Part shown: one piece after another, positions 10,517 through 40,996 of the stretch | Position numbering within the stretch: the first letter of the stretch is position 1 | Layout of the letters: each line of letters opens with the position of its first letter | From: Patescibacteria group bacterium | GTDB taxonomy: Bacteria; Patescibacteriota; Patescibacteriia; PEXW01 | DNA: 64,000 bases | Reading direction: 5' to 3' | NCBI GenBank assembly: GCA_041671325.1 | Contig: JBAZBR010000002.1 | Span: 137,978-201,977, forward strand | Notes under the pieces: generated by a model | Seen by the model: only the letters and a program-made list of their open reading frames with translations | The model's database searches: none | What the model was told of the DNA's origin: nothing | Translations under genes and position numbers: made by a program

Positions 10517-10690
10517 CCCTCTCCTGTTAGGAGAGGGTACGCGCCCGCCCGCCTTCGCAGACGAAGTACGGTGGGCAGGAAGCGAGGGCGAGGTTTCATT
10601 GCCTGTTACTGGGAAACTAATTTCTAAACTAAAAAATCCCTCACCCGGCCCCGCGGCCGCGGGGCCACCCTCTCCCAGAGGGAGAGGGGG
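10517..10690. repeat. GC-rich palindromic intergenic repeat (class 2)
   Basis: CCCTCTCC-TGTTA-GGAGAGGG, GGCCCCGCGGCCGCGGGGCC and CCCTCTCCC-AGA-GGGAGAGGG palindromes. Confidence 0.7.
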
Positions 10691-10755
10691 TTAGAAAAAT
10701 AATTAATTTCAAGCAAGTTTGATGCTCCTCCTTCGTTGCGACGAGGGATTTTGTT

Positions 10756-11481
10756 TTAGAATTTTCCAATTAGAGCGTACCAGATGGTCTTGAGTAAGCT
10801 CTTGTTTTGTTTTTGCAAACGTAAATGCAACCAATAAAGAATTCCCAAGATTGCGAAGGTTACGACTAAGGAAATTTCCCAATGGCTGACAATAAAACCT
10901 TTAAGCTCCAAGGGGTAATAACCAATGCCGAACCAAATGGCTGACCAGAGGATTTCCCCAGCCAATGCCAGCCAGAAAAAATTCCAAAATTTCATTTTTA
11001 ACATGCCTGCCGCATAATTCACAAAACCCAAGATCCCGGCAAACAAGAAGCGGGTCATAAAGACCAGTCTTTTGCCGCCGCCATGGGAAATGTAATTGTA
11101 GGCTTTTTGGTAATTCGGGTCGTGTTCGTCAATATTCAGCCATTTTAAAAAGTGGTGCCTGAACCGGCGGGTCAGGGCATAAGCAATAATATCACCTAAT
11201 AAAGAAGCAATGGTAATAATACTGATGGCTATAGTCGGGTTGTAATCGCCTTTGGCTGAAGCCATGCCAATGCCAATAGGCAAGAAGCTGGAAGGCAAGC
11301 CAGCAATGATATTAGCCAAGACAATCCAGAGGAAAACCACGGGGTAGCCAAAATGCTGGGTCCAAGCCAGAACGTGGACCTGGATAATGTCGCTAACCAA
11401 GAAACTGATTACCCAGATGACAAAGAAGACGGTTAAGACTTTAATGACGATAGGCCAATATCTGCCTTTTGGTGCTTGCAT
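10756..11481 (-). CDS. DedA/VTT-domain family membrane protein
   Basis: Multi-TM protein with DedA-like conserved Gly/Pro positions. Confidence 0.6.
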   Translation of the reverse strand: MQAPKGRYWPIVIKVLTVFFVIWVISFLVSDIIQVHVLAWTQHFGYPVVFLWIVLANIIAGLPSSFLPIGIGMASAKGDYNPTIAISIITIASLLGDIIAYALTRRFRHHFLKWLNIDEHDPNYQKAYNYISHGGGKRLVFMTRFLFAGILGFVNYAAGMLKMKFWNFFWLALAGEILWSAIWFGIGYYPLELKGFIVSHWEISLVVTFAILGILYWLHLRLQKQNKSLLKTIWYALIGKF

Positions 11482-11603
11482 TTTGTGCGGATTCCCTGGA
11501 TTAATTAATAATTTCGAATTTTCCGAAGGTTTGCCGACCTTCGGCCGGGCTTAATTTTCTGTTATAATAATTATAGAGTTTTTAAGGCTTTTTAGCTACA
11601 TTC

Positions 11604-12572
11604 ATGTTTATTAAGCGCAATTTTACCCTATCTGACGGGGAAACAATTACTTATGGCATTGCTCCGGCCGAAAATCAAAATCGGCCAGTTTTAATATTGC
11701 TGCCTGGGCAGAAAAAAATTGAACCAGGCCAGCTTTCCAAGGATTTCATCCCAGAACAATACGAATATTTGCAGGGGAAATTCCAGGTAATCATGTGGAA
11801 TTACCGTTTTAAAAATTACCCTGGCGAAAAAACCAACGTTTCCAGGATGGTTAAAGACTTGGAAGAGTTCGCTAAAGCTAAAAAAATTGAAAAACTGACA
11901 GTTTATGCCTATTCATACGGCGGTTTGATTGGTTTGGAATTTTGCCATATTAACCCAGAAAAAGTTAATGGTATTATCCTTTTAAGCACATTTGCCAGGT
12001 TCAGCTTTACCCATTTTGGTTTCAATAAGATGACCTGGAGATTTTTTTTGCATTTAATGGTCGTACCCAGTGCATCTTCTTCGCACATCCGGGAAAGCAT
12101 GTACTCAGACTTCAGGCAAAAACCCAGTGGTTATCATGGTCCGGCTGGAAAATTTTTGGATTGGATGTGGCACACTGGCTTGGACACGGTCTGGAACCAT
12201 TTTTGGAGCGAAAGGGTTTGGTCTGCGCTAAAAGCGGACTTACGGCCGATCCTGCCGGAAATTAAAACCCCAGCTTTAATTGTGGCCGGCCGGGCTGATG
12301 CATTGTGTCCAGTGGAATGGGCTGAAACTTTGCATAAAGGCTTGTCAAACAGTGAAATGGAAATCTTTGATGATGCGGGCCATTATGCGGTCCGAGTTTG
12401 GCCGGACAAATTCAACCAGAGGATCCGCAAATTTTTACAGGAAAGGTTGAGCGTGGTAGATTTTGACCAGGCTCAGGAGGTTAAATTTATACCAGAATTA
12501 TTGAAATTCTTGAGCATTACCAAAAAAATAACCATGTCATATTTTAATAAGTTCAGGAGCTTGTTCGCTTAA
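11604..12572 (+). CDS. alpha/beta hydrolase fold protein
   Basis: GxSxG-type nucleophile elbow (AYSYGG); typical length. Confidence 0.65.
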   Translation: MFIKRNFTLSDGETITYGIAPAENQNRPVLILLPGQKKIEPGQLSKDFIPEQYEYLQGKFQVIMWNYRFKNYPGEKTNVSRMVKDLEEFAKAKKIEKLTVYAYSYGGLIGLEFCHINPEKVNGIILLSTFARFSFTHFGFNKMTWRFFLHLMVVPSASSSHIRESMYSDFRQKPSGYHGPAGKFLDWMWHTGLDTVWNHFWSERVWSALKADLRPILPEIKTPALIVAGRADALCPVEWAETLHKGLSNSEMEIFDDAGHYAVRVWPDKFNQRIRKFLQERLSVVDFDQAQEVKFIPELLKFLSITKKITMSYFNKFRSLFA

Positions 12573-12576
12573 TTTT

Positions 12577-13785
12577 ATGAAAATTGGCATTGTCACTGAA
12601 TCATATTATCCCGCAGTCGGCGGCATTGCCGAACACGTCATAAATCTGGCTAAAGTTTTACGGGAGCGAGGCCATACTGTAAAAATTCTTACCTCCTCAT
12701 ACGGTGAGATGGCTGATGCGCCATTTAACAGCCCGGATGTAATTCGGCTTGGCAAAACTTTTAATTTTCAAAAGAATGGCACGCCCGGGCACATTGCTTA
12801 TGGCTGGCACTTATCCAAAAAAATCAGAAAGGTTTTAGCCGAAGAAAAGTTTGATCTTTTGCATTATCATGGGCCAGAACAGCCAACCTTACCCATGCTT
12901 GCCTTGTTGAATTCTACTACTGTTAATGTCGGGACTTTTCACGCTACCTATGACCGTTCCCTGCCGCTGGGCTTTTTAAGGCCAGTAGTTGCCAAAGCCT
13001 TAGCCAAACTTCACGCCAGGATTGTCGTCTCGCCGACTGCCAAAGAATCAATTTCAAAATATTTTTCAGAAGGTGAATACGAAATTGTTCATAACGGCAT
13101 TGAGGTTGAACGTTTTGCTTCGGGCAAAGCTTTGGAACAATACGCTGATCGGCCAAATATTGTTTTTGTAGGGAATTTTGTCTTGCGCAAGGGCTTTGTA
13201 AATTTAATGGAGGCTTTTACGCTTGTCCAAAAATCCATACCTAATGTTAGGTTGATTGCGGTTGGGGACGGGGTGTTGCGGGCTAGGTATGAAAAAAGTT
13301 TGGGTGAGGCCGTGGGCAAAGACGTTATTTTCACCGGCCGAGTTTCCACAGAAGAGCTATCGAATTATTATGCCAGTGCAGAAGTTTTCTGTTCGCCTGC
13401 AACAGGCAGGGAAAGTTTCGGGATTGTGCATTTGGAAGCCATGGCCGCCGGCCGGCCAGTGGTTGCCACCAATATTGCCGGATATAAATATGTTTTAGAA
13501 AACACGGGCGCAGCGCTTCTAGTCAATCCAAATGATATCAAAGGCTTAGCCCAGGCTTTGTTAAGGGTTTTAACTGATAAAAATTTAGCTAATCAAATGA
13601 GTGAAGCGGGCAAAAAAACCGTGGAAAAATTCCGCTGGGCAGATATTGGCTCCCAGGTTGAAGCGGTTTATGTAAAAGCCCTGGAAAGGTTTCCGCAAAC
13701 CTTGCCGGTTGTTCCGGGCTATAGGTGGCTGACTAAATTATTTAATTACAAACCCAAGGTAAAAAAAGCCTTAACCAATGAATGA
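12577..13785 (+). CDS. glycosyltransferase family 4
   Basis: N-terminal MKIGIVTESYYPAVGGIAEHV and C-terminal EAMAAGRPVVAT motifs of GT4/GT-B enzymes. Confidence 0.8.
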   Translation: MKIGIVTESYYPAVGGIAEHVINLAKVLRERGHTVKILTSSYGEMADAPFNSPDVIRLGKTFNFQKNGTPGHIAYGWHLSKKIRKVLAEEKFDLLHYHGPEQPTLPMLALLNSTTVNVGTFHATYDRSLPLGFLRPVVAKALAKLHARIVVSPTAKESISKYFSEGEYEIVHNGIEVERFASGKALEQYADRPNIVFVGNFVLRKGFVNLMEAFTLVQKSIPNVRLIAVGDGVLRARYEKSLGEAVGKDVIFTGRVSTEELSNYYASAEVFCSPATGRESFGIVHLEAMAAGRPVVATNIAGYKYVLENTGAALLVNPNDIKGLAQALLRVLTDKNLANQMSEAGKKTVEKFRWADIGSQVEAVYVKALERFPQTLPVVPGYRWLTKLFNYKPKVKKALTNE

Positions 13786-18638: not shown

Positions 18639-18668
18639 AATCGGGGATGGCAGGTTTGAAATATTTGA

Positions 18669-18770
18669 TCCCGCACCACTTTCCAAAAATAAACTTGAAA
18701 TTAATTGAGGATATTTTTTGTAATAAATATCTATATATTTAAATAATGTTTTTATGGAAAGCGGTGCGGG
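18669..18770. repeat. inverted-repeat-bounded AT-rich element, copy 1
   Basis: TCCCGCACCACTTTCC (18669-18684) and GGAAAGCGGTGCGGG (18756-18770) flank about 70 bp of AT-rich DNA. A second copy lies at 57486-57591. Confidence 0.55.
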
Positions 18771-18772
18771 AT

Positions 18773-19728
18773 GTACAGTTAACAGTCAAGGGTAACACTT
18801 TGGAGTAGTTTTTCCTGTGGGGTTAAACCATTAAGGGACAAATGGATTCTTTTAAAGTTGTAATAGTAAAGCCACTCATAAGGCGTCTGCCAAACTCGTT
18901 TAGGGTTTTGGTAGTAATCATCATCAATAGTCTTGTGAACCCTTTCCACATTGGCGTTCCACCAAGGTGATTTCTTGGGAATAAAGTAATGCGGGATATT
19001 GTTGGCAGTCAGCCAAAGGTGGAATTCACCCCTAAACTCGCCGCCATTGTCAGTCTGGACAGAGGCGATCTTAAAGCCAAAATACCTTTGGGCATATTTG
19101 AATGCTTCAATAGCGTTTCGGCTAGTTCTATTTGGAAAGACCGTAAAATGGTGCTTTTTGGTAAAAGGGTCAAAGACTGAGAATTGGAATTCCCTTTTGC
19201 CGTTTGGATAAACATACTTAACATCCATTTGCACGCCTTGGCCTGGTTTTTCAACCTTTAAAGCCTGCGTCATAGGCTCATACCAAGGCAACTTCTTTTG
19301 GGGTTTCCTAATCAATCTTTTCCTTTGGTAATAACGGTAAATGATAGTTGAGGAAATATCCAAACCTAAACTCTTCTTAACTAGAAGCTTCATTTTTAAA
19401 GGTCCGTAATTTGAAATTAGCTTGTGATGTTCGATAAAGACTTTAAGTTCATAGGTTAATTTCAAATTAGGCTGATTCTTAGCCGGGTAGTATCTGTTAC
19501 CCCTTTGGCCAAAATCCCTGGTCAGCCATTTGTAGTAGCACTTCCTGGAAATGCCAAATATCCTGCAGACTTCCTTAACGGATTTGCGGTATTTATTTAC
19601 CTGCAAATACCACTTAGCCCTTTGAGAATGGTCATATTTGGGGGTTTGCATATAGGTCATATGGTTAAGAGTTAACAGGTGTCACCCCAGAACCATACCA
19701 AGTGTCACCTCTAGGTGTTAACTGTAGA
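18773..19728. mobile_element. IS481-family insertion sequence
   Basis: One ORF with an HTH and an rve integrase core (TDNGGEF...E). Terminal inverted repeats TGTACAGTTAACAG (18773-18786) and GTGTTAACTGTAGA (19715-19728). Confidence 0.7.
18779..19660 (-). CDS. IS481-family transposase (integrase core domain)
   Basis: DDE motif with DNGGEF, typical of rve-domain IS3/IS481 transposases. Confidence 0.8.
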   Translation of the reverse strand: MTYMQTPKYDHSQRAKWYLQVNKYRKSVKEVCRIFGISRKCYYKWLTRDFGQRGNRYYPAKNQPNLKLTYELKVFIEHHKLISNYGPLKMKLLVKKSLGLDISSTIIYRYYQRKRLIRKPQKKLPWYEPMTQALKVEKPGQGVQMDVKYVYPNGKREFQFSVFDPFTKKHHFTVFPNRTSRNAIEAFKYAQRYFGFKIASVQTDNGGEFRGEFHLWLTANNIPHYFIPKKSPWWNANVERVHKTIDDDYYQNPKRVWQTPYEWLYYYNFKRIHLSLNGLTPQEKLLQSVTLDC

Positions 19729-19765
19729 CGGGATTGACAGTTTTTAGGGGTAATATTATTATGAA

Positions 19766-19792
19766 TTAGCACTCTTTAAGTTAGAGTGCTAA
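19766..19792 (+). promoter_or_regulatory. CIRCE operator (HrcA binding site)
   Basis: Perfect TTAGCACTC-N9-GAGTGCTAA, 15 bp upstream of hrcA. Confidence 0.9.
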
Positions 19793-19807
19793 ACAGTAAA
19801 ATACCCT

Positions 19808-20488
19808 ATGTTAAGCCGGAAAGAACAACTTTTCAAAACTATTGTCAGGCAACACATTGCCCTGGGTGAACCCGTAGGCAGTAAATTCTTGGTGGATAAG
19901 GCGCATTTTGACATATCCCCAGCCACTTGCCGCAATGACATGGCAGAACTGGAAAATGAAGGCTATTTGACCCACCCCCACACTTCAGCCGGCCGGGTGC
20001 CTACGGAAAAAGGCTGGCGCTGGTATTTGCAGACTTTTATGGAAGAAATGCCAATTGCTAAAAAAAACCAAGAAGCCATTACTAAAGCCATGGACTCTGA
20101 AGTTGGCGAACAGGGCATCAAGCAAGTCGCCAAAGTCTTGGCCGAGCTTTCCAAGCAAACCGCGATTGTCGGGTTTTCGGCTGATGATATGTATTACACA
20201 GGGCTCTCCAACCTTTTTGCCAAACCTGAATTCAATGAATTGGATTTGCTCCAACATCTTTCCGAAGTGGTTGACCATTTAGACCAAGTTATGCGCAAAT
20301 TTTTCAAATCCAGCCAAGCCGAAGTGGAAGTCTTGATCGGCAAGGACAATCCTATTGACGAACATTGTAGTCTCTTGGTCACCCGTTTGGAAAACAAAAC
20401 CGGAACCTTAGTGGCTTTGCTGGGGCCTATGCGCATGGATTATGACCGGTTATTGCCTTTAATAAAATTCACCCGCACGATAATTTAA
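19808..20488 (+). CDS. hrcA: heat-inducible transcription repressor HrcA (short form, 226 aa)
   Basis: N-terminal winged-helix pattern (RQHIALGEPVGSKFL); position between CIRCE and grpE. Confidence 0.75.
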   Translation: MLSRKEQLFKTIVRQHIALGEPVGSKFLVDKAHFDISPATCRNDMAELENEGYLTHPHTSAGRVPTEKGWRWYLQTFMEEMPIAKKNQEAITKAMDSEVGEQGIKQVAKVLAELSKQTAIVGFSADDMYYTGLSNLFAKPEFNELDLLQHLSEVVDHLDQVMRKFFKSSQAEVEVLIGKDNPIDEHCSLLVTRLENKTGTLVALLGPMRMDYDRLLPLIKFTRTII

Positions 20489-20493
20489 AAAAT

Positions 20494-20988
20494 ATGGCAG
20501 ATGAAAATACTAAGATTGAAGAATCCGCAGAAAAAGTTAAGGTCGATTTAGAAAGGCTGCAAAAGTTGAATGAAGAATATTTGGACGGCTGGAAACGGGC
20601 CAAAGCGGATTACATAAATTTCAAGCGTGAATCGGAAAAGGAAAAAATGCAGATTGTGCAATTTGCCAATGCCGGTTTGCTCCTGGAATTAATGCCTATT
20701 GTCGACAATATCAAAACCGCACTCAAGCATGTGCCAGAAGAAAACCAGAAAGCCGAATGGGTTAAAGGCTTTGAACACATTTTGAAACAATTTTTGAATG
20801 TTTTGAAGGAAATGGGCGTGGAACAAATTCCGGCTAGGGGCGAAAAGTTTGACCCGGAAAAGCATGACGCCGTCAGTAAAGAAAAAAAAGAGGGGACTGA
20901 ACCCGGAATCATTTTGGAGGAAATTGCTACGGGTTATACCTTGCAAGGCAAAGTCATCAAGCATTCCAAGGTTAAAGTCAGCGAATAA
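20494..20988 (+). CDS. grpE: nucleotide exchange factor GrpE
   Basis: GrpE fold signature and operon context. Confidence 0.85.
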   Translation: MADENTKIEESAEKVKVDLERLQKLNEEYLDGWKRAKADYINFKRESEKEKMQIVQFANAGLLLELMPIVDNIKTALKHVPEENQKAEWVKGFEHILKQFLNVLKEMGVEQIPARGEKFDPEKHDAVSKEKKEGTEPGIILEEIATGYTLQGKVIKHSKVKVSE

Positions 20989-20990
20989 TC

Positions 20991-21166
20991 CCCCTACATA
21001 CCGCCTCTCCTATATAGGAGAGGATGGCCCCGCGGCCGCGGGGCCAGGTGAGGTGGACGAATAAACAAATTCCTTATTTCCGAATTCCCTCCCGCCTGCC
21101 TTCGCCGGAGCGAAGTACGGCGGGCAGGCACCCCGACCCTCTCCTAGATGGAGAGGGGATAAAAAC
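20991..21166. repeat. GC-rich palindromic intergenic repeat (class 2)
   Basis: CCTCTCCTATATAGGAGAGG, GGCCCCGCGGCCGCGGGGCC, and CCTGCC...GGCGGGCAGG / CCCTCTCC-TAGAT-GGAGAGGG. Confidence 0.7.
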
Positions 21167-21203
21167 TTAATAATTAGTCATTAATTAAAAGGAGAATAAA
21201 TTT

Positions 21204-21623
21204 ATGCCAATTATAAAATGGACACCAGCTGGAAATATGTTCGATGATATGGACCATATGATGGAAGACGCTTGGTTACCAGTCATGCGCTCCCACTTTG
21301 CCCCGGCCGTGGATGTTTATGAAGAAAAAGATAATGTGGTGGCGGAAATGCCTTTGGCTGGCATGGATCCAGAAAAAGTGGAAATTACCGTGGAAGACAA
21401 TGTCTTGACCGTGGCAGGCAAAAATGAGCACAAGAGTGAAGTTGATGAAAAGAATTATTACCGCAAAGAAGTCCGCTATGGCGCTTTCAGCCGTTCCGTG
21501 GCCCTGCCCAAGGCAGTCAAAGGCGAACAAGCCGAAGCCACTTTTGATAAAGGTATTTTGAAAATCGTCATGCCCAAGGCCGAAGAGGCGAAGCCAAAGA
21601 CCATCAAGGTCAAGGCGAAATAA
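21204..21623 (+). CDS. Hsp20/alpha-crystallin family small heat-shock protein
   Basis: ACD-domain pattern (AVDVYEE...VEITVEDNVLTVAGK...GAFSRSVALP). Confidence 0.85.
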   Translation: MPIIKWTPAGNMFDDMDHMMEDAWLPVMRSHFAPAVDVYEEKDNVVAEMPLAGMDPEKVEITVEDNVLTVAGKNEHKSEVDEKNYYRKEVRYGAFSRSVALPKAVKGEQAEATFDKGILKIVMPKAEEAKPKTIKVKAK

Positions 21624-21630
21624 TCACATT

Positions 21631-21875
21631 ACCTCCTCTCCTATATAGGAGAGGATGCCCACAGGGCAGGTGAGGTGGGCGAATAAACTTATTCTTAATT
21701 TTCCAAGTAACCCTCACCCCCGCTTCGCGTACCCTCTCCCAGAGGGAGAGGGGGTAAAAATGCAAAGGATTACCACTTCTTTGCACTTCAGCCCACCCTC
21801 TGTCATTCCGACCGAAGCCCCGCTTGGCGGGGCGTAGTGGACCTGCCCGCCGAACTGGCAAGGCAGGTGGGGGAA
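21631..21875. repeat. GC-rich palindromic intergenic repeat cluster (class 2)
   Basis: CCTCTCCTATATAGGAGAGG, CCCTCTCCC-AGA-GGGAGAGGG and CCTGCCCGCC...GGCAGG. ORFs in this span are artefacts. Confidence 0.7.
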
Positions 21876-22014
21876 TCTCATATGATGCAGTCGAGATCCC
21901 TCGGCTAAGCTCGGGATGACAAAAGAAAGAAATTGACTTCGCGGAGTTTATCCCGCTTATCGGCGGGAGTCGCTCGCAATGACAGATAGTAACTAATCAA
22001 ACTCTAGAAACAAT

Positions 22015-22359: not shown

Positions 22360-22374
22360 TTTTTTAATAAACAT

Positions 22375-28545: not shown

Positions 28546-28548
28546 GGA

Positions 28549-28725: not shown

Positions 28726-28748
28726 AGAGAGTAGCTTAGTCGGAACAA

Positions 28749-29288: not shown

Positions 29289-29338
29289 GAAAAACCTCCA
29301 GTTTATCTTTCGTTTCTTGGTTTCTTTCTAAGTCACTT

Positions 29339-29367
29339 AATCTAGCAAAAAAGTTTATTGCTGTCAA
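29339..29367 (-). promoter_or_regulatory. sigma70 promoter of cassette gene 3
   Basis: TTGACA-17-TAGATT. Confidence 0.6.
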
Positions 29368-29437
29368 TCCTCCTCCGCTCTCCCTCCCCGCCCAAAAGGC
29401 GGGCAAGCCTTCCGCCCCTGCCCGCGGGGTAGAGAGG
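29362..29437. repeat. class-1 repeat
   Basis: TGTCAATCCTCCTCCGCTC...CCCAAAAGGCGGGCAAGCC...CCCGCGGGG. Confidence 0.7.
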
Positions 29438-29531
29438 TTAGGGTAAGGAATAACGTGTTTGACAGATTAGTAGCGCCATATTAAAGTTGTTCAACAAAGA
29501 AATCATTTGATCTTTATATCTTGGAGGTAGT

Positions 29532-29768
29532 ATGAAAGTGATTGTCAGTGAAAGAGAAGTAACCGGAGATAGGGGTTGCTATGCTAACCCACCGGTTGGC
29601 GCTTCAGTAATCGAAGGTGAGGAAATCCATTTTGCAAATGTTGACTTAACCGCGGATGGGGATAGTCTAAAAATCCGCATTGACAATGACCGGATGTGCT
29701 ATCTTTTTATTCAACGGGATGGAGATACCTTACGTATCAGCAATATCGGTTACGATGTTAAATCGTAA
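29532..29768 (+). CDS. plus-strand gene inside the array: hypothetical protein, 78 aa
   Basis: SD GGAGGTAGT; followed by its own terminator. Confidence 0.5.
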   Translation: MKVIVSEREVTGDRGCYANPPVGASVIEGEEIHFANVDLTADGDSLKIRIDNDRMCYLFIQRDGDTLRISNIGYDVKS

Positions 29769-29774
29769 ATTCAA

Positions 29775-29806
29775 GCGGGATTTCTCCTCCCGCTTTTTAT
29801 TAACGG
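29775..29806 (+). terminator. intrinsic terminator
   Basis: AGCGGGA-TTTCTCC-TCCCGCT followed by TTTT. Confidence 0.6.
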
Positions 29807-29823
29807 TCGGTAAATAATTCTAT

Positions 29824-29898
29824 GCTTCCACTTCCACGGCTTACGCCGTTCCCGCCCAAAGGGCGGGCAAGCCCTCCGCTAGCGGGGTGGGGTTTTTG
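29824..29898. repeat. class-1 repeat without an attached minus-strand promoter
   Basis: GCTTCCACTTCCACGG...CCCGCCC-AAA-GGGCGGG...GGGGTGGGGTTTTTGG. Confidence 0.65.
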
Positions 29899-29908
29899 GA
29901 TAATACAA

Positions 29909-29935
29909 AAACCGCTGGGCGAACCATACGGTTTT
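29909..29935 (-). terminator. terminator of cassette gene 4
   Basis: AACCG...CGGTT hairpin plus a T-run. Confidence 0.5.
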
Positions 29936-29957
29936 TAAAGATGTTGGCGTTGAAGGT

Positions 29958-30233
29958 CTATCGCGTTTCCACGAAGGTAAGCGTTCCTTCAAACACCCCG
30001 AACGAGCTGCTTTCCTGGAATAAGTAATTTTCGGGTTTTTCGTCCGCACGCATGGTACGGGTGAGAACCCACAGGTCGTCTTCTTTCCAGGTGGCGTTTA
30101 CCAGCTTCGTTCCTGCCGGTAATGCAATGGTTTCTTCGCCACCAAAATTGCGGACTCGCTGTTGCTTGGTACAACCACTGAAGCAACCGAAGATCAGCAA
30201 TACGGCCAGGGAAAGAATCAATGTCTTTTTCAA
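29958..30233 (-). CDS. cassette gene 4: small lipoprotein, 91 aa
   Basis: Signal peptide with lipobox FSG-C. Confidence 0.55.
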   Translation of the reverse strand: MKKTLILSLAVLLIFGCFSGCTKQQRVRNFGGEETIALPAGTKLVNATWKEDDLWVLTRTMRADEKPENYLFQESSSFGVFEGTLTFVETR

Positions 30234-30259
30234 AATACCTCCCGACTTTCTCGATGGTT

Positions 30260-30302
30260 TAATTTAATTTCGTGTAACCATAGATGATAGCATAAATAGA
30301 TA
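30260..30302 (-). promoter_or_regulatory. sigma70 promoter of cassette gene 4
   Basis: TTGACA-16/17-TATCAT. The -35 sits in one arm of a 19-bp inverted duplication. Confidence 0.5.
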
Positions 30303-30384
30303 TTTTGTCAACCCCGTTAGAGTTTAGTTTTAATGACTCTAATATATGGGGTAATTAATCATAATAACTCTAACGGGGTCAACC
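30297..30384. repeat. 19-bp perfect inverted repeat duplicating the repeat/-35 junction
   Basis: GTCAACCCCGTTAGAGTT (30297-30315) and AACTCTAACGGGGTCAACC (30366-30384). Confidence 0.6.
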
Positions 30385-30440
30385 CTCCTCCGCTTCCATC
30401 TCCCGCCCAAAGGGCGGGCAAGCCTCGCCCGCGGGGTGAG
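30378..30440. repeat. class-1 repeat
   Basis: CCTCCTCCGCTTCCATCTCCCGCCCAAAGGGCGGGCAAGCCTCGCCCGCGGGG. Confidence 0.7.
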
Positions 30441-30532
30441 GGAAAGATTGCTTCGCAAAACCTCGCAATGACGTAGAAAAAGAAAACCGACCCGCTCTAA
30501 GTGAGGGATCGGTAGAAATTAAACGGCGTCAG

Positions 30533-30850
30533 TTAGAATCTGGGTGGAAGTTCACCTTTGCGTAATCGGGAATATATTGCCGGTATCTGGGATGGCTTCG
30601 CATAGAATTCGATGCCATATGTCCCGACGTAGTCGCCGTCGTACTTGATAACCCACACATCTTCCATGGTGAGTTTGGCTTTTGGAAAGTCCTTTTTCGC
30701 CTCTTTAAAGAGGCGAAAGATATAGTCTAGGTAGCCATGCTGGAGGGAGGTCCTGATTATGACTAGCAGAGTTCCCTTTGGCCGGCCATTATATGGATAG
30801 CACTCTTTGATGAGCTCTACATCCTTCTGTTTCAACAAATCAGTTGCCAT
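30533..30850 (-). CDS. cassette gene 5: hypothetical protein, 105 aa
   Basis: SD AAGGAG; own promoter. Confidence 0.5.
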   Translation of the reverse strand: MATDLLKQKDVELIKECYPYNGRPKGTLLVIIRTSLQHGYLDYIFRLFKEAKKDFPKAKLTMEDVWVIKYDGDYVGTYGIEFYAKPSQIPAIYSRLRKGELPPRF

Positions 30851-30894
30851 ATCTAATTACTCCTTTTTGTTTTTGACAGTTTTGTTATAGAAGA

Positions 30895-30922
30895 ATCTAA
30901 CAAACCATCTGAAATGTGTCAA
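30895..30922 (-). promoter_or_regulatory. sigma70 promoter of cassette gene 5
   Basis: TTGACA-16-TAGATT. Confidence 0.6.
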
Positions 30923-31050
30923 TCCTTTCCGCTTCCACCTCCCCTCCTTCGCCCTTCGGCTTCCGCCTACGCCAAATGCTTCGGCGGACAAGTCGGAGGG
31001 CGGGTCGCCCAAAAGGCGGGCAAGCCCTCCGCCCGCGGGGTGTATTTTTT
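30917..31050. repeat. class-1 repeat, long form (about 134 bp)
   Basis: Adds CTTCGCCCTTCGGCTTCCGCCTACGCCAAATGCTTCGGCGGACAAGTCGGAGGGCGGGTCG before the common 3' half. Plus-strand UUCG tetraloop hairpins. Almost identical to 32400-32510. Confidence 0.75.
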
Positions 31051-31055
31051 AGCAA

Positions 31056-31092
31056 AACAAAAACCCCGGGAAGAATCCACGGGGTTTTGCAA
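31056..31092 (-). terminator. conserved hairpin terminator of cassette gene 6
   Basis: CCCCGGGAAGAATCCACGGGG plus a T-run. Confidence 0.65.
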
Positions 31093-31107
31093 AGGTCATC
31101 TTTTGAT

Positions 31108-31398
31108 TTAAAACTTCATGTAGAAACCCTGGAGGAGCATATACTCTACGTCGACATGTTCTGTGCCGACAGTGATTTTTTGGAGTATATCCAGGATTTC
31201 AGCATTGTAGTCGTTCGGCGTAGACACGAGCCTGATGTACGGTTGGCGTGCACCCCTGACGTCAATCACGTAACTTCCAGGGAATACCGTGATAACGTAT
31301 TCGACTTCGTAATCCTTGCCCCTGAAGGCATTTTGAATCTGAGACGTTAACTCCTCGATCTCGTTTTGTTCAAACCCGATAATTTCAATATTCGGCAT
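31108..31398 (-). CDS. cassette gene 6: hypothetical protein, 96 aa, possible tautomerase-superfamily member
   Basis: Start at MPNIEII with SD AAGGAGG; the N-terminal Met-Pro-x-I-x-I resembles 4-OT/MIF tautomerases. The longer track ORF runs through the promoter. Confidence 0.5.
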   Translation of the reverse strand: MPNIEIIGFEQNEIEELTSQIQNAFRGKDYEVEYVITVFPGSYVIDVRGARQPYIRLVSTPNDYNAEILDILQKITVGTEHVDVEYMLLQGFYMKF

Positions 31399-31444
31399 TT
31401 GAACCTCCTTTTCAAGTAAAATGTTCATGTTTGAATAACGAAAA

Positions 31445-31473
31445 AGTATAGCGTAAATTTTTATTTTTGTCAA
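31445..31473 (-). promoter_or_regulatory. sigma70 promoter of cassette gene 6
   Basis: TTGACA-17-TATACT. Confidence 0.6.
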
Positions 31474-31509
31474 TCCTTTTCCGCTTTTACTATTGATTTT
31501 TGGAATAAG

Positions 31510-31540
31510 AAAAACCCATCCATAGAGGACGGGTTTTCCA
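31510..31540 (-). terminator. terminator of cassette gene 7
   Basis: AACCCGTCC...GGATGGGTT hairpin plus a T-run. Confidence 0.5.
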
Positions 31541-31556
31541 ATGAGATATTTTGGTG

Positions 31557-31898
31557 TTAGGCGGTCACCGGATGATTTTTGAAGTAATCCGGATCGACGA
31601 GCAGCAGAATTTGCTCGCACGCACCAGCGAAGCTCTGCTCATCCACGATGCAACCCCATTTCCTCACGTACAGCCGGGAGAAATCCCAGGTGTTTATTTT
31701 GTTTTTCTCCAGGAGTTCTTCCAGGAGAAGGATGATCGCGTTATGGGTCGTGAACATTTCAGGGGCAGAGTAAACGTGCTCGGCTTTTTTCTGCTCGAGG
31801 CTCTGCTTTGTTCTTTCGAGCAGTTCCTGCAGGGCTCTGCGTAGCTCGTCGTTTTCAGGCAGAATAATATCAATTCCGCCCTTTGCCAGCTCTGTCAT
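31557..31898 (-). CDS. cassette gene 7: hypothetical protein, 113 aa
   Basis: Start at MTELAKGG with SD GAGGAGG, downstream of the promoter. Confidence 0.5.
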   Translation of the reverse strand: MTELAKGGIDIILPENDELRRALQELLERTKQSLEQKKAEHVYSAPEMFTTHNAIILLLEELLEKNKINTWDFSRLYVRKWGCIVDEQSFAGACEQILLLVDPDYFKNHPVTA

Positions 31899-31934
31899 GT
31901 GTACCTCCTCGTTTTTGTTTTCGTAATTTATAAC

Positions 31935-31968
31935 AGCAAAGTATTGCATAGTAAATAAATTTTGTCAA
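31935..31968 (-). promoter_or_regulatory. sigma70 promoter of cassette gene 7
   Basis: TTGACA-17-AATACT. Confidence 0.5.
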
Positions 31969-32027
31969 TCCTTTCCGCTTCCTCCTTTTGCCCTCTACGC
32001 TAGCGTGGTGTATTTTTTATCAAAGCA
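31963..32027. repeat. class-1 repeat, short variant
   Basis: TGTCAATCCTTTCCGCTTCCTCC...GCTAGCGTGGTGTATTTTTT. Confidence 0.65.
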
Positions 32028-32028
32028 A

Positions 32029-32058
32029 AAACCCCGGGAAGAATCCACGTGGTTTTTA
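32029..32058 (-). terminator. conserved hairpin terminator of cassette gene 8
   Basis: CCCCGGGAAGAATCCACGTGG plus a T-run. Confidence 0.6.
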
Positions 32059-32069
32059 GTAAAGAGGGT

Positions 32070-32330
32070 TTAGACAACATTGAGTGCTCGCTTGATGATG
32101 TCAACGGTAATTTCCAAGCTCATTATATTAATCCGAAGCAACAATTCAGTTTTCGGTAAGGCGTCTATGGCCGCGCACCATTCCGGATGCGTGTTCATTA
32201 GCGTTGCCCGCCCACCCTTATCCTTGTCAGCGGTTTTCCAAAAGAGATCTTTAATGTCTTGGATTTCTGCTGGCGTGCGTGCTTGTAAAAGTTTTGTTAT
32301 TTCATCAAGAGCTTTTTCAAAATCTGTCAT
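32070..32330 (-). CDS. cassette gene 8: hypothetical protein, 86 aa
   Basis: SD AAGGAAGG; own promoter. Confidence 0.5.
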   Translation of the reverse strand: MTDFEKALDEITKLLQARTPAEIQDIKDLFWKTADKDKGGRATLMNTHPEWCAAIDALPKTELLLRINIMSLEITVDIIKRALNVV

Positions 32331-32376
32331 TTATTGCCTTCCTTTGTTTTTGTAAATTTCACTTATTTAATAAGGG

Positions 32377-32405
32377 AACTTAACAAATAATAAAATTCTT
32401 GTCAA
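32377..32405 (-). promoter_or_regulatory. sigma70 promoter of cassette gene 8
   Basis: TTGACA-17-TAAGTT. Confidence 0.6.
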
Positions 32406-32510
32406 TCCTTTCCGCTTCCACCTCCCCTCCTTCGCCCTTCGGCTTCCGCCTACGCCAAATGCTTCGGCGGACAAGTCGGAGGGCGGGTCGTCCGCCCGCG
32501 GGATCCCGTG
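32400..32510. repeat. class-1 repeat, long form, second copy
   Basis: About 95% identical to 30917-31050 over the shared part. Confidence 0.75.
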
Positions 32511-32522
32511 GAATATTAAATC

Positions 32523-32553
32523 AGACCTCACAATTGTGAAGTCTGATCGAAAC
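32523..32553 (-). terminator. long perfect hairpin 3' of cassette gene 9
   Basis: ATCAGAC-CTCACAATTGTGAAG-GTCTGAT. The loop is itself palindromic; the T-tract is weak. Confidence 0.35.
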
Positions 32554-32574
32554 AGCAGTTTGTTTTGTTGATCC

Positions 32575-33072
32575 TCAGAATGAAACATGCTCCCGAATTA
32601 CCCGTACAATCTGTTTGGTCATCTCATCGAACCCAAACACGGGCGACCAACATGCCCAGATTTCATAGGGTTCAAGGTGAACACTCTTTATGCCTTGGAT
32701 TCCAAAGAGTGCTTTCACCAAACTGGTTTGCTTGTCCGGTTGGGCACCAGGATAGTGGAAAGAAAGGCGCTGTGCTTCAGTAATTGGCTCAGAAACATCG
32801 AAGTAGCAGTCGCTACGCCCTCCGTTCTTGCTCGTCAGAGCGATACGTAGATTTGGGTCCCAGTTCGTCCGTCGATTCATCGGAACCTCGCCGAGTTTAA
32901 GCATCCAGGTACCGGCCCTGACGAAAAATTTTCGTCCTGGGCAGCAAAGAAGCAGGTGCTTCAATAGGTTTGAAACGTACAACATAGTTACCCCATGCCT
33001 TGCGCTGTTGTTTGTTGGCTGTCTTTTGACGCAAGGCTGCGTATTGGGCAAGACAGATAATCCCAAACGCAT
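32575..33072 (-). CDS. cassette gene 9: hypothetical protein, 165 aa
   Basis: Start ambiguous: MRLGL at 33072 has a short leader and no SD; MLYVSN at 32985 has a weak SD. The track ORF runs upstream through the promoter. Confidence 0.4.
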   Translation of the reverse strand: MRLGLSVLPNTQPCVKRQPTNNSARHGVTMLYVSNLLKHLLLCCPGRKFFVRAGTWMLKLGEVPMNRRTNWDPNLRIALTSKNGGRSDCYFDVSEPITEAQRLSFHYPGAQPDKQTSLVKALFGIQGIKSVHLEPYEIWACWSPVFGFDEMTKQIVRVIREHVSF

Positions 33073-33088
33073 ATTTTTGTAACTGAGT

Positions 33089-33117
33089 ATAGTACCGTAC
33101 TTTTTGTTTTTTGTCAA
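33089..33117 (-). promoter_or_regulatory. sigma70 promoter of cassette gene 9
   Basis: TTGACA-17-TACTAT. Confidence 0.55.
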
Positions 33118-33150
33118 CCCTTTTCCACTTGAGCCCTTTACCCTAAAAAC
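33112..33150. repeat. class-1 repeat, degenerate right-most copy
   Basis: TGTCAACCCTTTTCCACTTGAGCCC. Confidence 0.5.
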
Positions 33151-33156
33151 AACGGG

Positions 33157-33190
33157 AAAAAATAGCCCCGAACCGGTGTTCGGGGCTTTC
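33157..33190 (-). terminator. intrinsic terminator on the minus strand
   Basis: GCCCCGAAC-ACCG-GTTCGGGGC plus a T-run. Confidence 0.6.
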
Positions 33191-33251
33191 AAGGAGGGAT
33201 ATAACTCACCAAGTGGTTATCCTTGGCGAAATCATTATAAGAAAAACGAAA

Positions 33252-33288
33252 TATTTGTCAAAAAAAAGGAGCCCCAAGGATGTCTTGG
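33252..33288 (-). terminator. intrinsic terminator on the minus strand
   Basis: GAGCCCCAAG-ACATCC-TTGGGGCTC followed by an 8-T run. Confidence 0.6.
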
Positions 33289-33510
33289 GGCTCACAAGGA
33301 AAGGAGGTCAGAATGAAAACACTGAAGTAGTACCGGAACTGCTAAGAAAGGAACCCGAGATCCGCGAACGAGAGAAGGAAGTATTTGTTTTAGCTATATA
33401 AAATATAATATAATCCTTTAAAGCCGTCAAATCACTTATAAAATCGTTAAGATTGTTAATAAGGCCCAATTAAACTAAAATGTATTTATCTCTTAATTAT
33501 TAAAAAACAT

Positions 33511-33801
33511 ATGAACCAACAACAGCAAATTCAAATTAAAATTGACGACACCATCATGAAAGGCGTTTATGCCAATATGATGAGCGTATCCCATTCCAAG
33601 GAGGAATTCCTTTTGGATTTTTTGAATATTTACCCGCTCCAGCAGGCTGGGATTGCCACCGCCAGGGTGATTGTCTCCCCAGGCCATATGAAAAGGATTG
33701 TGAATGCCCTGCAGGATAATCTGAAAAAATACGAGAGCAGTTTTGGCGCGATTAAGGAAGCTGATGCGCCCACCAGCGGGGAAGTGGGATTTAAGGGGTA
33801 A
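33511..33801 (+). CDS. DUF3467-like small conserved protein, copy B
   Basis: Paralog of 25292-25579. Differences are mostly synonymous. Confidence 0.6.
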   Translation: MNQQQQIQIKIDDTIMKGVYANMMSVSHSKEEFLLDFLNIYPLQQAGIATARVIVSPGHMKRIVNALQDNLKKYESSFGAIKEADAPTSGEVGFKG

Positions 33802-33915
33802 GTCTTATATCATCCTGAACCTGAGCTTGTCGAAGGTGAAGGATCTTCATAAAGTATGATATTTATTGAGATTCTTCACCCCGCGGTTGCGGGGTTCAGA
33901 ATGACAGAATAAAAC

Positions 33916-36270: not shown

Positions 36271-36305
36271 TATAATCAAGTAGCCCGATTTTTATTTTTC
36301 CCCTC
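36271..36305 (+). terminator. intrinsic terminator after dnaJ
   Basis: ATCGGGCT...AGCCCGAT followed by TTTTTATTTTT. Confidence 0.65.
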
Positions 36306-36445
36306 ACCCCCTTCCCCTCTCCCTGCCTACCGGCAGGCAGGCCGCTAAGGGAAGAGGGAGGTAATAGTAACTCTGACTAATTACAAAATAACATTCCTTT
36401 CTTTTTCCTCCCCCCTCACGGGGGAGGAACTAAAGGAGAGGAGGA
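36300..36445. repeat. GC-rich palindromic intergenic repeat (class 2 variant)
   Basis: CCCTCACCCCC...CCCTCTCCC...GGGAAGAGGGAGG and CCTCCCCCCTCACGGGGGAGG. Confidence 0.6.
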
Positions 36446-36541: not shown

Positions 36542-37105
36542 ATGGATATTAACGCCGCAACCACTTCGGTCCAAGGCTTATTCGCTGGCTTTAACTGGTC
36601 GCAACCCAGTTGGGATTTGTTTATTATCATGTTTTTTGTGATTGCGGCTTTTTTGTATGGCTTGTCTTTGGGCCGGGACCGGATAATTGTCATTATGGTT
36701 TCCATTTATATGGGATTGGCCATAGTTAACACGGCTCCGTTCTTATCCAGCACAGTCATTACCATCCAAACGCCCTTTATGGTTAAGGTCAGCGTATTCT
36801 TAGGCGTGTTTGTGGCTTTATTTTTTCTGCTTTCCCGTTCAGCGCTTTTGCGCACTATTGCCGCTTCTGATGCCCAAGGCAAGTGGTGGCAAGTTTTGAT
36901 TTACTCTATTTTACATGTGGGACTTTTAGTCAGCGTGACTTTGAATTATTTGAATCCCGAAGCCGTGGCCAAATTGGCGCCCTTAACCCAGAAAATATTT
37001 GCTACGCCTAATGCCAGGTTCATCTGGATCATCGCCCCGATCGTAGCCATGATTTTATTCGGCGGCGGCGCGGCTGAAAAGAAGAAATATAAGTACGAGA
37101 TTTAG
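36542..37105 (+). CDS. hypothetical membrane protein, 187 aa
   Basis: Five predicted TM helices. Confidence 0.5.
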   Translation: MDINAATTSVQGLFAGFNWSQPSWDLFIIMFFVIAAFLYGLSLGRDRIIVIMVSIYMGLAIVNTAPFLSSTVITIQTPFMVKVSVFLGVFVALFFLLSRSALLRTIAASDAQGKWWQVLIYSILHVGLLVSVTLNYLNPEAVAKLAPLTQKIFATPNARFIWIIAPIVAMILFGGGAAEKKKYKYEI

Positions 37106-37327: not shown

Positions 37328-37380
37328 ACCCCTCACCCCCAACCCCTCTCCCTAAAGGGAGAGGGGCGTCAGAAGGGGTT
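37328..37380. repeat. GC-rich palindromic repeat (class 2, short)
   Basis: CCCCTCACCCCCAACCCCTCTCCC-TAAA-GGGAGAGGGG. Confidence 0.6.
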
Positions 37381-39731: not shown

Positions 39732-39824
39732 ATTATTTGTTCGAGCAATTTAAACAAAAAATACCAGCCAAATAATAAGCCGGTATTTTTAACAACGTGT
39801 TTTGGTTTATTCAATCAACTGGTT

Positions 39825-40085
39825 TCAACGGATTAATTCATCAGGATCAAAATCAGGATTGCACATTTGACTGTCCCACGTGCTTGGAAGTAATCGGGGA
39901 TAGGGCATGGATTGGTTCTTTTTCCGCCGCCGGTAATATAAACCAAAGACAGAAGCGTTAATTGGGATCAGCATCAGCGACCACCAGTCAGAAATTCCTA
40001 TCACAGGGAGTATAAGTAATGCAATAAAGATTAGACTTGCATTTGCGCTCGCTCCTAACAGCAGGAGTGTTTTAAACTTAAGCAT
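39825..40085 (-). CDS. small membrane protein, 86 aa
   Basis: Two TM helices. Confidence 0.4.
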   Translation of the reverse strand: MLKFKTLLLLGASANASLIFIALLILPVIGISDWWSLMLIPINASVFGLYYRRRKKNQSMPYPRLLPSTWDSQMCNPDFDPDELIR

Positions 40086-40207
40086 TTTTTACTCCTTGCT
40101 CTTGAGTCTGGTTTAATGAACAACGGTAATAATCTATATTAAACCCTGCAAAAAAGCAAGGTATAGCCAATAATCTAATAGAAATTTAAGAAATCTTAAA
40201 AAAACAA

Positions 40208-40735
40208 TCAGCCATTTTTTTGTCCGAAGATATATTTATAGATAGGAATGGATTTTTCCGTGGGTTTGTCTTTGGCTTCTAATTTCCAATCGGGGATAGA
40301 AAAAGTGTAAGAAACAATTCGGGTGCCTGGCTGGCACTCTTTTTCAAATTTTATTTTAAGTTTTTTCATGGCTGGAGCTGTGAGAAAACAAAAAATAACA
40401 TTGGCTTGGGAAAAGTCGGCTTTATAAAAATCCTTAAACTTAAATTTCACCCTGGGTTTAAGTTTTCTAACCCTAAACCAACCAAAAATATAAGGCAGGA
40501 CAGAAATTTCAAAACCAATAATGCTTTTGGCTTTGGTCTTGGCAAATTCGGGTAAGAGCCTGGCATCACCTGCGCCCAGTTCAAAGATGGTTTCATCCTC
40601 CTTTAAATCAACAAAGTCCAAAATTCGTTGGTAATCATATTGCCATGTGGGAACCCAAGGTGCACCCTTGAATACTGCCCAAGCCGCACTGCCAACGATA
40701 ATTATGAAAATAACAATAAATAGGTAAAGCAGCAT
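40208..40735 (-). CDS. class I SAM-dependent methyltransferase, membrane-anchored
   Basis: N-terminal TM helix and motif I ELGAGDA. Confidence 0.65.
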   Translation of the reverse strand: MLLYLFIVIFIIIVGSAAWAVFKGAPWVPTWQYDYQRILDFVDLKEDETIFELGAGDARLLPEFAKTKAKSIIGFEISVLPYIFGWFRVRKLKPRVKFKFKDFYKADFSQANVIFCFLTAPAMKKLKIKFEKECQPGTRIVSYTFSIPDWKLEAKDKPTEKSIPIYKYIFGQKNG

Positions 40736-40757
40736 GTGAGAATTTTAGCATATATTT

Positions 40758-40996
40758 TCCCCTCACCCTCCAACCCCTCTCCGACAAAGGTGAGAGGGAG
40801 GTAAGTAGTTTTTTCTGTCATTGCGAAGGAGTGCCTGCCCGCCATCGTTTGTCTCAGGCGTTGCAGGCGGGAAACGATCGACCTGTCCGCCGTACTCGCT
40901 TGTCGAGGCAGGCGGGAGCAATCTGGTCTTCAATAAAACGAAAGATTGCCACGTCGTCCCGCCCCCGCGGCCGCGGGGGCGGGACTCCTCGCACTG
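40758..40996. repeat. GC-rich palindromic repeat cluster (class 2)
   Basis: CCCCTCACCCTCCAACCCCTCTCC...GGTGAGAGGGAGG, CCTGCCCGCC...GGCGGG, and CCCGCCCCCGCGGCCGCGGGGGCGGG. ORFs here are artefacts. Confidence 0.7.

Follow-up and report, generated by a model that had tools for sequence, protein, structure and literature searches.

The subject of this contribution is a set of GC-rich hairpin repeats dispersed between the genes of a 64,000-nucleotide stretch of contig JBAZBR010000002.1 (assembly GCA_041671325.1), referred to as the window in the following. The window proteins are annotated in NCBI under a 'Patescibacteria group bacterium' metagenome-assembled genome (MAG) and homologues of the membrane protein encoded at 36542-37105 are named Candidatus Kerfeldbacteria; judged by these matches, the host is a Candidatus Kerfeldbacteria MAG. 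The window contains a heat-shock operon with the gene order hrcA-grpE-hsp20-Zn-ribbon-dnaK, and dnaJ follows about 11 kb further, past an island of small genes. A copy of a DUF3467 gene stands on either side of this island (25600-33500), at 25292-25579 and at 33511-33801 (85% nucleotide identity), and the island comprises about 12 small monocistronic open reading frames (ORFs), including a GNAT and a DHFR/RibD_C-like gene, the rest having no Pfam match. Every island gene is equipped with a TTGACA-N17-TAnnnT promoter of its own and with a bidirectional terminator, and a GC-rich repeat, always in the same orientation, stands between the genes. The conserved left part of this array repeat is a minus-strand promoter, and its variable part is built of the same GC modules as the dispersed elements described below. 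With a GC content of 44-68%, compared to 42.7% for the window, the dispersed elements together amount to about 1.4 kb or 2.2% of the sequence.

An earlier note on this DNA had described these repeats as one palindromic family, resembling repetitive extragenic palindromic (REP) sequences or miniature inverted-repeat transposable elements (MITEs), at eight or more loci. A motif census recovered the quoted motifs at all eight loci listed, and each locus lies between plausible genes according to Pfam, to the gene calls of the source contig and to an independent assembly. The observation itself is thereby confirmed: the repeats are dispersed, palindromic, intergenic, non-coding and of REP or MITE size, they flank hsp20 on both sides, and spurious ORFs run across them, for example 27826-28143(+), 21610-21861(-), 40831-41109(+) and 40854-41183(-). 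The third locus, given there as 21631-21875, reaches to 21925, and copies beyond those listed are present at 21929-21985, 30445-30472 and 33808-33907. The interpretation is only partly supported, since the repeats are not one family. At least three unrelated types of unit are mixed and nested in one another, namely class A, class B and small GC hairpin modules, to which the promoter-bearing array repeat with the same modules has to be added.

The window contains 34 perfect GC-rich hairpins of at least 7 bp, the majority of them within 10.5-41 kb. The motif CCCTCTCC-N2-8-GGAGAGGG is found at 10517, 10668, 21137, 21732, 27945, 28655 and 37344, CCTCTCCTATATAGGAGAGG at 21004, 21635, 27852 and 28562, GGCCCCGCGGCCGCGGGGCC at 10647, 21026 and, as a variant, 40961, CCTGCCCGCC at 21842 and 40834, and GGCGGGCAGG at 21119. 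A regular expression for triplex-type units (see below) matched the window nine times and none of 200 local-composition shuffles, and the CCTCTCC..GGAGAGG hairpin was found 12 times compared to a mean of 0.005 in such shuffles; chance cannot account for the excess of these motifs. One hairpin at 18608, considered as a further family member, is an ordinary terminator instead.

Class A elements are inverted pairs of about 125-175 nt, in which two units of the form CCCTCTCC-loop-GGAGAGGG-loop2-GGTGAGG flank an AT-rich spacer. The left half reads (CCTCTCC-TATATA-GGAGAGG)-AT-(mini GC hairpin)-AGGTGAGG and is followed by a spacer of about 40 nt and then by CCCTCAC-(mini GC hairpin)-(CCCTCTCC-CAGAG-GGAGAGGG), so that the two halves are inverted copies of one another with arms of about 45 nt. 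Between copies at unrelated sites the identity is 74-89%, the AT-rich spacer included, which indicates that the whole element is the repeated unit. The hairpin in loop 2 is variable and shows compensating changes (GGCC-gaa-GGCC, GCCC-aca-GGGC, GGCCCCGCG-gc-CGCGGGGCC and a 38-nt CCCGCCTGCC...GGCGGGCAGG), and as a consequence of such nested modules the copies differ greatly in length. The predicted single-strand folds are far more stable than those of shuffled sequences, with z between -4 and -7 for copies of class A as well as of class B (see below), the one at 40759 being the exception.

Five composite class A copies are present. The first (10517-10690) is in reverse orientation on the minus strand between the convergent genes of a Peptidase_C39_2 protein (9686-10486, +) and a VTT protein (10756-11481, -), both assigned by Pfam; it carries GGCCCCGCGGCCGCGGGGCC (10647-10666) in loop 2 of one arm and CCCGCCCGCC..GGTGGGCAGG (10543-10580) in the other, and its reverse complement is identical to the copy at 20996 in 114 of 143 positions. 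The latter (20996-21158, +) begins a few bases past the grpE stop codon, has the GGCCCCGCGGCCGCGGGGCC module in its left and CCCGCCTGCC..GGCGGGCAGG in its right arm, and is predicted to fold with -47.2 kcal/mol (z -6.7). A third copy (21630-21754, +; z -5.6), with the loop-2 mini-hairpins GCCC-aca-GGGC and CGC-ttc-GCG, lies just past the hsp20 stop codon. The remaining two stand in the small-gene array at 27847-27966 (+; loop-2 hairpin GGCC-gaa-GGCC, z -6.9) and at 28557-28676 (+). They are identical in 120 of 120 positions and both lie inside a 199-nt segmental duplication (98% over 199 nt), so that they do not count as independent copies; the array repeats at 29877, 31030 and 31998 lack the class A element seen at 27847-27966. 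Three related forms complete the series. A pair in reverse order (36300-36444, +), recognised by sequence and fold, lies just past the dnaJ terminator; it runs from third strand, pyrimidine arm and purine arm through a spacer to pyrimidine arm, purine arm and third strand, and has a CTGCCTACCGGCAGGCAG module in loop 1. A solo triplex-type unit, CCCCTCTCCC-TTTA-GGGAGAGGGG-TT-GGGGGTGAGGGG (37329-37366, -), is located about 35 nt upstream of the cysS start, and a degenerate one, CCCCTCACCC..CCCCTCTCC-gacaaag-GTGAGAGGG (40759-40801, -), folds no better than its shuffles (z -0.02) and is thus a decayed copy.

The main type is not new; it matches a known element of Escherichia coli and other bacteria. 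This element, BoxC, was reportedly studied by Bachellier and co-workers in the 1990s and by Hoyne and Maher in 2000. It was renamed potential intrastrand triplex (PIT) element and after that TM_ECO, with the consensus 5'-CCCTCNCCC N3-6 GGGNGAGGG N3 GGGNGAGGG, and E. coli K-12 has 23 copies of it, always intergenic and including five inverted pairs (Holder et al. 2015, PMC4666352). In the same study 3610 copies were counted in 262 proteobacterial genomes, the strict motif was placed in Proteobacteria only, and the isolated TM_ECO strand formed a triplex in vitro. The BoxC between hrpB and mrcB of K-12 reads CCCTCTCCC-tgtg-GGAGAGGG-ccg-GGGTGAGGG, followed by a spacer and by CCCTCACCC-taa-CCCTCTCCC-tcaa-GGGAGAGGG. 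Class A shares with BoxC the unit CCCTCTCCC-loop-GGGAGAGGG-loop2-GGGTGAGGG, down to the odd T of its third segment, as well as the order of pyrimidine arm, purine arm and G-rich third segment and the arrangement in inverted pairs (E. coli L089, 144-238). Both are strictly intergenic, multi-copy, often located just past a stop codon and variable between strains; for the E. coli motif it was likewise noted that loci bearing it are more variable between strains (PMC4666352). The solo unit at 37329-37366 is identical to the TM_ECO units of E. coli in 31 of 34 positions. There are also differences. Loop 2, of 3 nt in BoxC, has 5 nt in the solo unit and in the pairs comprises 11-47 nt including a nested GC hairpin, class A has left arms with stems of only 7 nt and a TATATA loop, its spacer is longer and AT-rich, and its host is a Patescibacteria genome of the candidate phyla radiation (CPR) rather than a proteobacterium. 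A BLAST search of a class A copy against E. coli genomes gave no match at E<=0.01, the shared part being only about 34 nt long.

The folds of the elements were predicted from Watson-Crick pairing. In the case of BoxC, a single strand is able to adopt a hairpin together with an intrastrand triplex of the purine motif, and the triplex model requires that the C-rich arm is located 5'. The pyrimidine/purine (Y/R) hairpins invariably have their C-rich arm on the 5' and their G-rich arm on the 3' side, with 0 cases of the opposite type in 564 kb of loci; for GC hairpins in general, the ratio of C-rich-arm-5' to the opposite type is 22:6 in the window and 24:3 in relatives. Ordinary terminators have this polarity in a weaker form, with 55:27 in other bacteria. 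Note that some of the pyrimidine and purine arms (CCTCCTT and AAGGAGG) resemble anti-Shine-Dalgarno and Shine-Dalgarno pairs.

Class B is based on a hairpin unit of about 30-55 nt, (A)GATTGC...CTCGCAATGACA, the start of which is also given as TGTCATTSCGAG, with the subtypes ..GGGATGACA and ..TCAGAATGACA. The units occur solo or as inverted pairs with GC hairpins nested in the arms. A full element, the inverted pair TGTCATTCCGACC...GGGATGACA at 21798-21925 (+; fold z -4.2), contains, besides a GCCCCGC-ttg-GCGGGGC hairpin, a 30-nt CCTGCC..GGCAGG module (about 21841-21870). It is followed by a solo unit, ..TCCCGCTTATCGGCGGGA..GCTCGCAATGACAG, at 21929-21985 (+), which by sequence comparison is kept at the same place in the relative L090, where it reads GGATTGCCAGGTCATCCCGCGGTCGCGGGACTCCTCGCAATGACAG. 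Another solo unit, AGATTGCTTCGCAAAACCTCGCAATGAC at 30445-30472 (+), has the same form as units in viral contigs. The full element at 33808-33907 (+), recognised by sequence and fold, belongs to the subtype TCATCCTGA...TTCAGAATGACAG with an ACCCCGC-ggtt-GCGGGGT hairpin, and this subtype also flanks hsp20 in the relative L096. A third full element, TGTCATTGCGAAGGAGT...ACTCCTCGCACTGACA at 40816-40999 (+; predicted fold -54.2 kcal/mol, z -6.3), has a left arm with two CCTG(C/T)CCGCC..GGCGGG modules and a right arm with GTCCCGCCCCCGCGGCCGCGGGGGCGGGAC. At 8290-8420 (+), outside the range covered by the earlier note, a class-B-like end, GTTATTGCGAGGG, is followed by an CCGCCTGCC...GGTGGGCAGG module and is a possible further copy, as judged by its sequence.

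The third type, GC mini-hairpin modules of 20-45 nt (CCTGCC..GGCAGG and CCCCGCGG..CCGCGGGG), is nested in loops and arms of A and B and also within the array repeat; these modules are the perfect palindromes of the earlier note. A common origin of elements and array repeat had been suggested there from shared submotifs. The sharing itself was confirmed, as eight of ten occurrences of GGCGGGCA and 13 of 14 of CCGCGGGG fall in these elements or in array repeats, and the nested GC modules are common to both; nothing beyond those modules connects the two. Rfam 15 yielded two tRNAs in the window at the gathering threshold and no family for A or B, and a permissive scan of 8000-42000 gave nothing credible. 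No paper describing class B by its sequence was found in the literature. Class B is apparently a second, undescribed and pan-bacterial hairpin unit.

This wide occurrence applies to the short units of both classes. The exact 20-mer CCTCTCCTATATAGGAGAGG was found in six stretches among 185,579 species genomes, none of them from the window's own genome. Two are contigs of Saccharibacteria that carry full inverted pairs with a 3-nt loop 2, one of them with an exact TM_ECO 'A mm' unit; other matches come from MAGs with the labels Gammaproteobacteria, FCPU426 and Dehalococcoidales. At least 120 viral contigs contain the strict triplex-type unit and at least 120 that of class B, over a range of 37-70% GC; most of these are solo units and some form tandem arrays. 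Class B units are located between genes in phage operons, in three GenBank phage records and near grpE in unrelated bacteria. The occurrence of the BoxC-like unit in Patescibacteria, including Saccharibacteria, in contigs labelled Dehalococcoidales and FCPU426 and in viral contigs argues for either a wide horizontal spread or a universal structural constraint.

The strongest indications for the nature of the elements come from related strains, a comparison that the earlier note had proposed. Orthologous loci, fetched via the 90% cluster of Hsp20 and via homologues of the membrane protein, revealed gain, loss, swap and inversion of discrete units at identical positions. Conserved protein coding is not found there: the orthologous sites bear different elements or none. 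Past the grpE stop codon the window has a class A element with two large modules, and L096, the Hsp20 of which is identical to that of the window in 137 of 139 positions, has a class B element instead. At the same site L097 has class A with another mini-hairpin beside a different Y/R hairpin pair (L009 type), and L009, L010 and L090 have only that other pair. A 74-aa ORF stands between the grpE-side element and hsp20 in L010 (588-812) and in L090 and is absent in L009. Past the hsp20 stop codon, class A in the window and class B in L096 occupy exactly the same place between almost identical flanks, with about 70 nt of perfect identity downstream. Both also share a class B element downstream of hsp20, and that of the window contains an additional 30-nt CCTGCC..GGCAGG module with clean borders, on either side of which the direct repeat GTGG is found. 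Past the dnaJ terminator the element at 36300-36444 is the reverse complement of that in L103 (104 of 136 identities; alignment score 141.5 inverted versus 103.75 in the same orientation) and has an extra loop-1 module; in L098 the element is absent. Upstream of cysS the window has the solo unit, L098 has nested class B elements, and L103 has a giant class A element with modules nested in loops 1 and 2. The load differs accordingly: per 10 kb, Y/R hairpins number 2.3 in the window, 0 in L098 (a 91% relative) and 0.05 in distant bacteria, and class B ends 0.9, 4.4 and 0.16, respectively. An independent assembly (L001, ENA ERZ27249449 k141_1366455) ends exactly at a class A copy, at window position 27974, and in one NCBI MAG the genes of DnaK and DnaJ are on different contigs; these repeats break assemblies.

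That whole units are gained, lost, swapped and inverted as discrete pieces is, in our view, evidence of either mobility or copy-and-paste recombination. Because whole units are inserted, lost, exchanged and flipped at the same intergenic positions among close strains, we consider it rather probable that the elements are selfish, non-autonomous, structure-prone non-coding hairpin repeats that nest into one another and are subject to rapid turnover. The positions concerned lie a few bases past a stop codon or a terminator. Movement may proceed via a single-stranded hairpin intermediate that is handled in trans by a nuclease or a transposase; alternatively, template switching or gene conversion between copies could produce the same changes.

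Several points weigh against this interpretation. In the more distant relatives the identity of the flanking coding DNA is as low as 77-85%, so that old polymorphism contributes to some of the differences between strains, and some could result from homologous recombination of such polymorphism rather than from transposition. It is unusual for selfish repeats that short units are conserved from phylum to phylum, which could mean a conserved function. The E. coli motif was reported not to be associated with mobile elements (PMC4666352), and the link to it is not strict. The exact published TM_ECO pattern had 0 matches in the whole window, while the positive controls gave two matches in the E. 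coli BoxC and one in the Saccharibacteria contig L004. The exact pattern fails because loop 2 is longer or bears a hairpin: if loop 2 may have 2-6 nt, one match is obtained (37365, minus strand), and three if it may have 2-50 nt. Class A is therefore filed as a BoxC-like variant and not as a strict member of TM_ECO. Finally, no mobilising enzyme was identified, the window has neither a gene for a REP-associated tyrosine transposase (RAYT) nor a GIY-YIG gene, and there is no consistent target-site duplication, the only one seen being the 4-nt GTGG around one GC module.

A conserved function could be that of a cis-acting RNA or DNA signal that is selected in place. Hairpins between cistrons or at 3' ends would then shield the upstream mRNA from 3' exonucleases or modulate translation termination near the stop codon, as has been shown for REP sequences of E. 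coli. We regard this as possible but on balance unlikely to be the main explanation, and it can coexist with mobility. The position of the elements speaks for it, as they begin 3-30 nt past the stop codons of grpE, hsp20 and the C39 peptidase gene or just past the dnaJ terminator, and some structured element is present at these sites in every relative examined. The predicted folds are stable, class B units are located between the genes of phage operons, and several elements stand inside what appears to be a single heat-shock transcription unit. The only strong promoter there and the only operator for HrcA, a perfect CIRCE sequence (TTAGCACTC-N9-GAGTGCTAA) behind a TTGACA-17-TATTAT promoter at 19734-19792 and the sole one in the window, are located upstream of hrcA; no terminator-like site was found between grpE and dnaK, and no element in 19600-25400 was flagged as a terminator. 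Transcription of the heat-shock operon therefore probably runs through the elements, which would be tolerated inside the hrcA-grpE-hsp20-dnaK transcript and would thus not be strong terminators. Against selection in place, unrelated sequences (A, B and other Y/R pairs) replace each other, the orientation flips, and the element at the dnaJ site is wholly lost in L098. Most right ends are followed by A-runs and not by a U-tract, none of the hairpins was flagged as a terminator, and the array copies adjoin separate true terminators. The E. coli motif showed neither promoter nor terminator activity and no link to a class of genes (PMC4666352).

If the elements are mobile and non-autonomous, as we favour, an enzyme may be supplied in trans. 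The sole transposase of the window is that of an insertion sequence (IS) of the rve (DDE) type at 18764-19737 (transposase 18779-19660), and its TACAGTTAACA terminal inverted repeats are unlike the ends of A or B, so that it was rejected as parent element. This IS lies just upstream of the hrcA promoter, and in L090 its place is taken by another transposase (HTH_38). A long inverted repeat with an AT-rich loop, CCCGCACCACTTTCC ... GGAAAGCGGTGCGGG (18668-18775), lies by the IS end and has weak, chance-level matches to miRNA models in Rfam.

The elements could instead be classical REPs, or bacterial interspersed mosaic elements (BIMEs), mobilised by a RAYT, as is reportedly known from work of Nunvar in 2010 and Ton-Hoang in 2012. 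Units of A and B are imperfect palindromes of REP size, solo, in tandem or in inverted pairs, and share with REP/BIME the intergenic and intercistronic location and the lineage-specific load. A gene for a RAYT-like Y1 transposase is present in L101-L103 (L103, 710-1264) between the DUF3467 gene and a gene for 393 amino acids, exactly where the window has the class B copy at 33808-33907. The protein matches Pfam Y1_Tnp (1.7e-12) and NCBIfam REP_Tyr_transpos (6e-19), the latter with 68 bits and thus below the cut-off of 80, and its gene is flanked by inverted, GTAG-headed hairpins (GTAGCCGCAGAGCTTGCTCTGC and an inverted partner) and a 20-nt tandem duplication. These hairpins are unlike both A and B, do not recur dispersed over the loci examined, and are the only ones with such a head: the conserved GT[AG]G was found on no unit of A or B. 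In addition, REPs are normally species-specific, whereas the A and B units are common to several phyla and are not accompanied by a cognate RAYT flanked by the same units. We consider an identity as classical REP/BIME elements mobilised by a RAYT to be very unlikely, and nothing observed links the RAYT-like gene to A or B.

Similar reservations apply to MITEs. Nested palindromic elements such as Correia/NEMIS, RUP, ERIC and the Rickettsia palindromic elements are short and palindromic, as are the GC clusters of fungal mitochondria. With this group, which also includes the double-hairpin elements of fungal mitochondria, the A and B elements have in common terminal inverted repeats (class A arms of about 45 nt; class B ends TGTCATTGCGAGG...CCTCGCAATGACA), a length of 100-200 nt, presence/absence polymorphism, GC-rich palindromes on an AT-richer background and mutual nesting. 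They differ in that no parent IS with the same ends was found in the window and no consistent target-site duplication was seen, and in that their modules target the loops of other hairpins. The flanks of the elements are AT-rich, with TA/TTA and an imperfect 13-15-nt repeat at the array copies as candidates and no consistent repeat.

A second candidate enzyme is of the GIY-YIG type. Small genes of this family (UPF0213-like, 81-105 aa) are present in L104 (1512-1829 and 17193-17895), L098 (3697-3993) and L091 (3980-4225), and all four copies are directly flanked by class B units; one of them, a pseudogene, is enclosed by two class B arms, one left and one right, and is accompanied by nested units of the triplex type and of class B. 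Neither the window nor 1.09 Mb of class-B-rich viral loci contained a gene of this family, which implies that the link to class B is local at best. A literature search for GIY-YIG genes together with repeats returned papers on fungal mitochondria only. The picture is one of hot spots that collect several kinds of selfish DNA, and the connection to either enzyme, RAYT-like or GIY-YIG, is a lead only.

The small-gene island raises the question of whether the elements are recombination sites of a gene-cassette system, similar to the attC sites of integrons, with hsp20 and the array ORF 28032-28397 as cassettes. Direct class A copies indeed bracket hsp20 (630 nt apart) and this ORF (710 nt apart), two near-identical class B copies bracket hsp20 in L096, the array contains typical cargo (GNAT and the DHFR-like gene), and small-gene arrays stand at different intergenic sites in relatives. 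L104 has a comparable array at another site (10792-13200). A cassette system nevertheless appears highly improbable. In L097 class A is present on one side of hsp20 only, hsp20 lies between grpE and dnaK in all relatives whichever element flanks it, and most copies bound no cassette-like gene. No integrase is present among the annotated ORFs of the window, in which no integron-integrase search was made, and the only recombinase seen among them is the rve transposase with its unrelated terminal repeats. The array repeat was rejected as an attC site: it has no GTTRRRY/RYYYAAC core sites, half of the repeats have GTCAAT, which is the -35 box of the TTGACA-N17-TAnnnT promoter on the other strand, and its conserved part is that promoter. 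Outside the range of the earlier note the window further contains two short tandem repeats at 5805-5849 and 44133-44181 (periods 19 and 24) and, at 5873-5893, an isolated CTCCCCCT-tggca-AGGGGGAG hairpin.

About 30 years after they became known in E. coli, BoxC/PIT/TM elements still lack an established function or mode of spread, and the main type described here is a variant of them. New are the CPR host, the nested GC modules, the occupancy of the same sites by a second hairpin unit and the record of turnover at the level of strains. As a practical consequence, assemblies of CPR MAGs break at the repeats and false ORFs arise from them. A more far-reaching and so far doubtful model is that BoxC/PIT units and class B (..CTCGCAATGACA) are pan-bacterial, also phage-borne hairpin elements that are active in Kerfeldbacteria, where they would share sites past stop codons, accept further hairpins in their loops and be moved in trans by RAYT-like Y1 or GIY-YIG nucleases of hot spots. 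If mobilisation in trans by such nucleases is true, it would provide a first handle on the spread of BoxC, a question open since the 1990s. The Kerfeldbacteria strains represent a natural experiment in this respect, in which gain, loss, swap and inversion at identical sites could yield both the boundaries of the elements and candidate enzymes.

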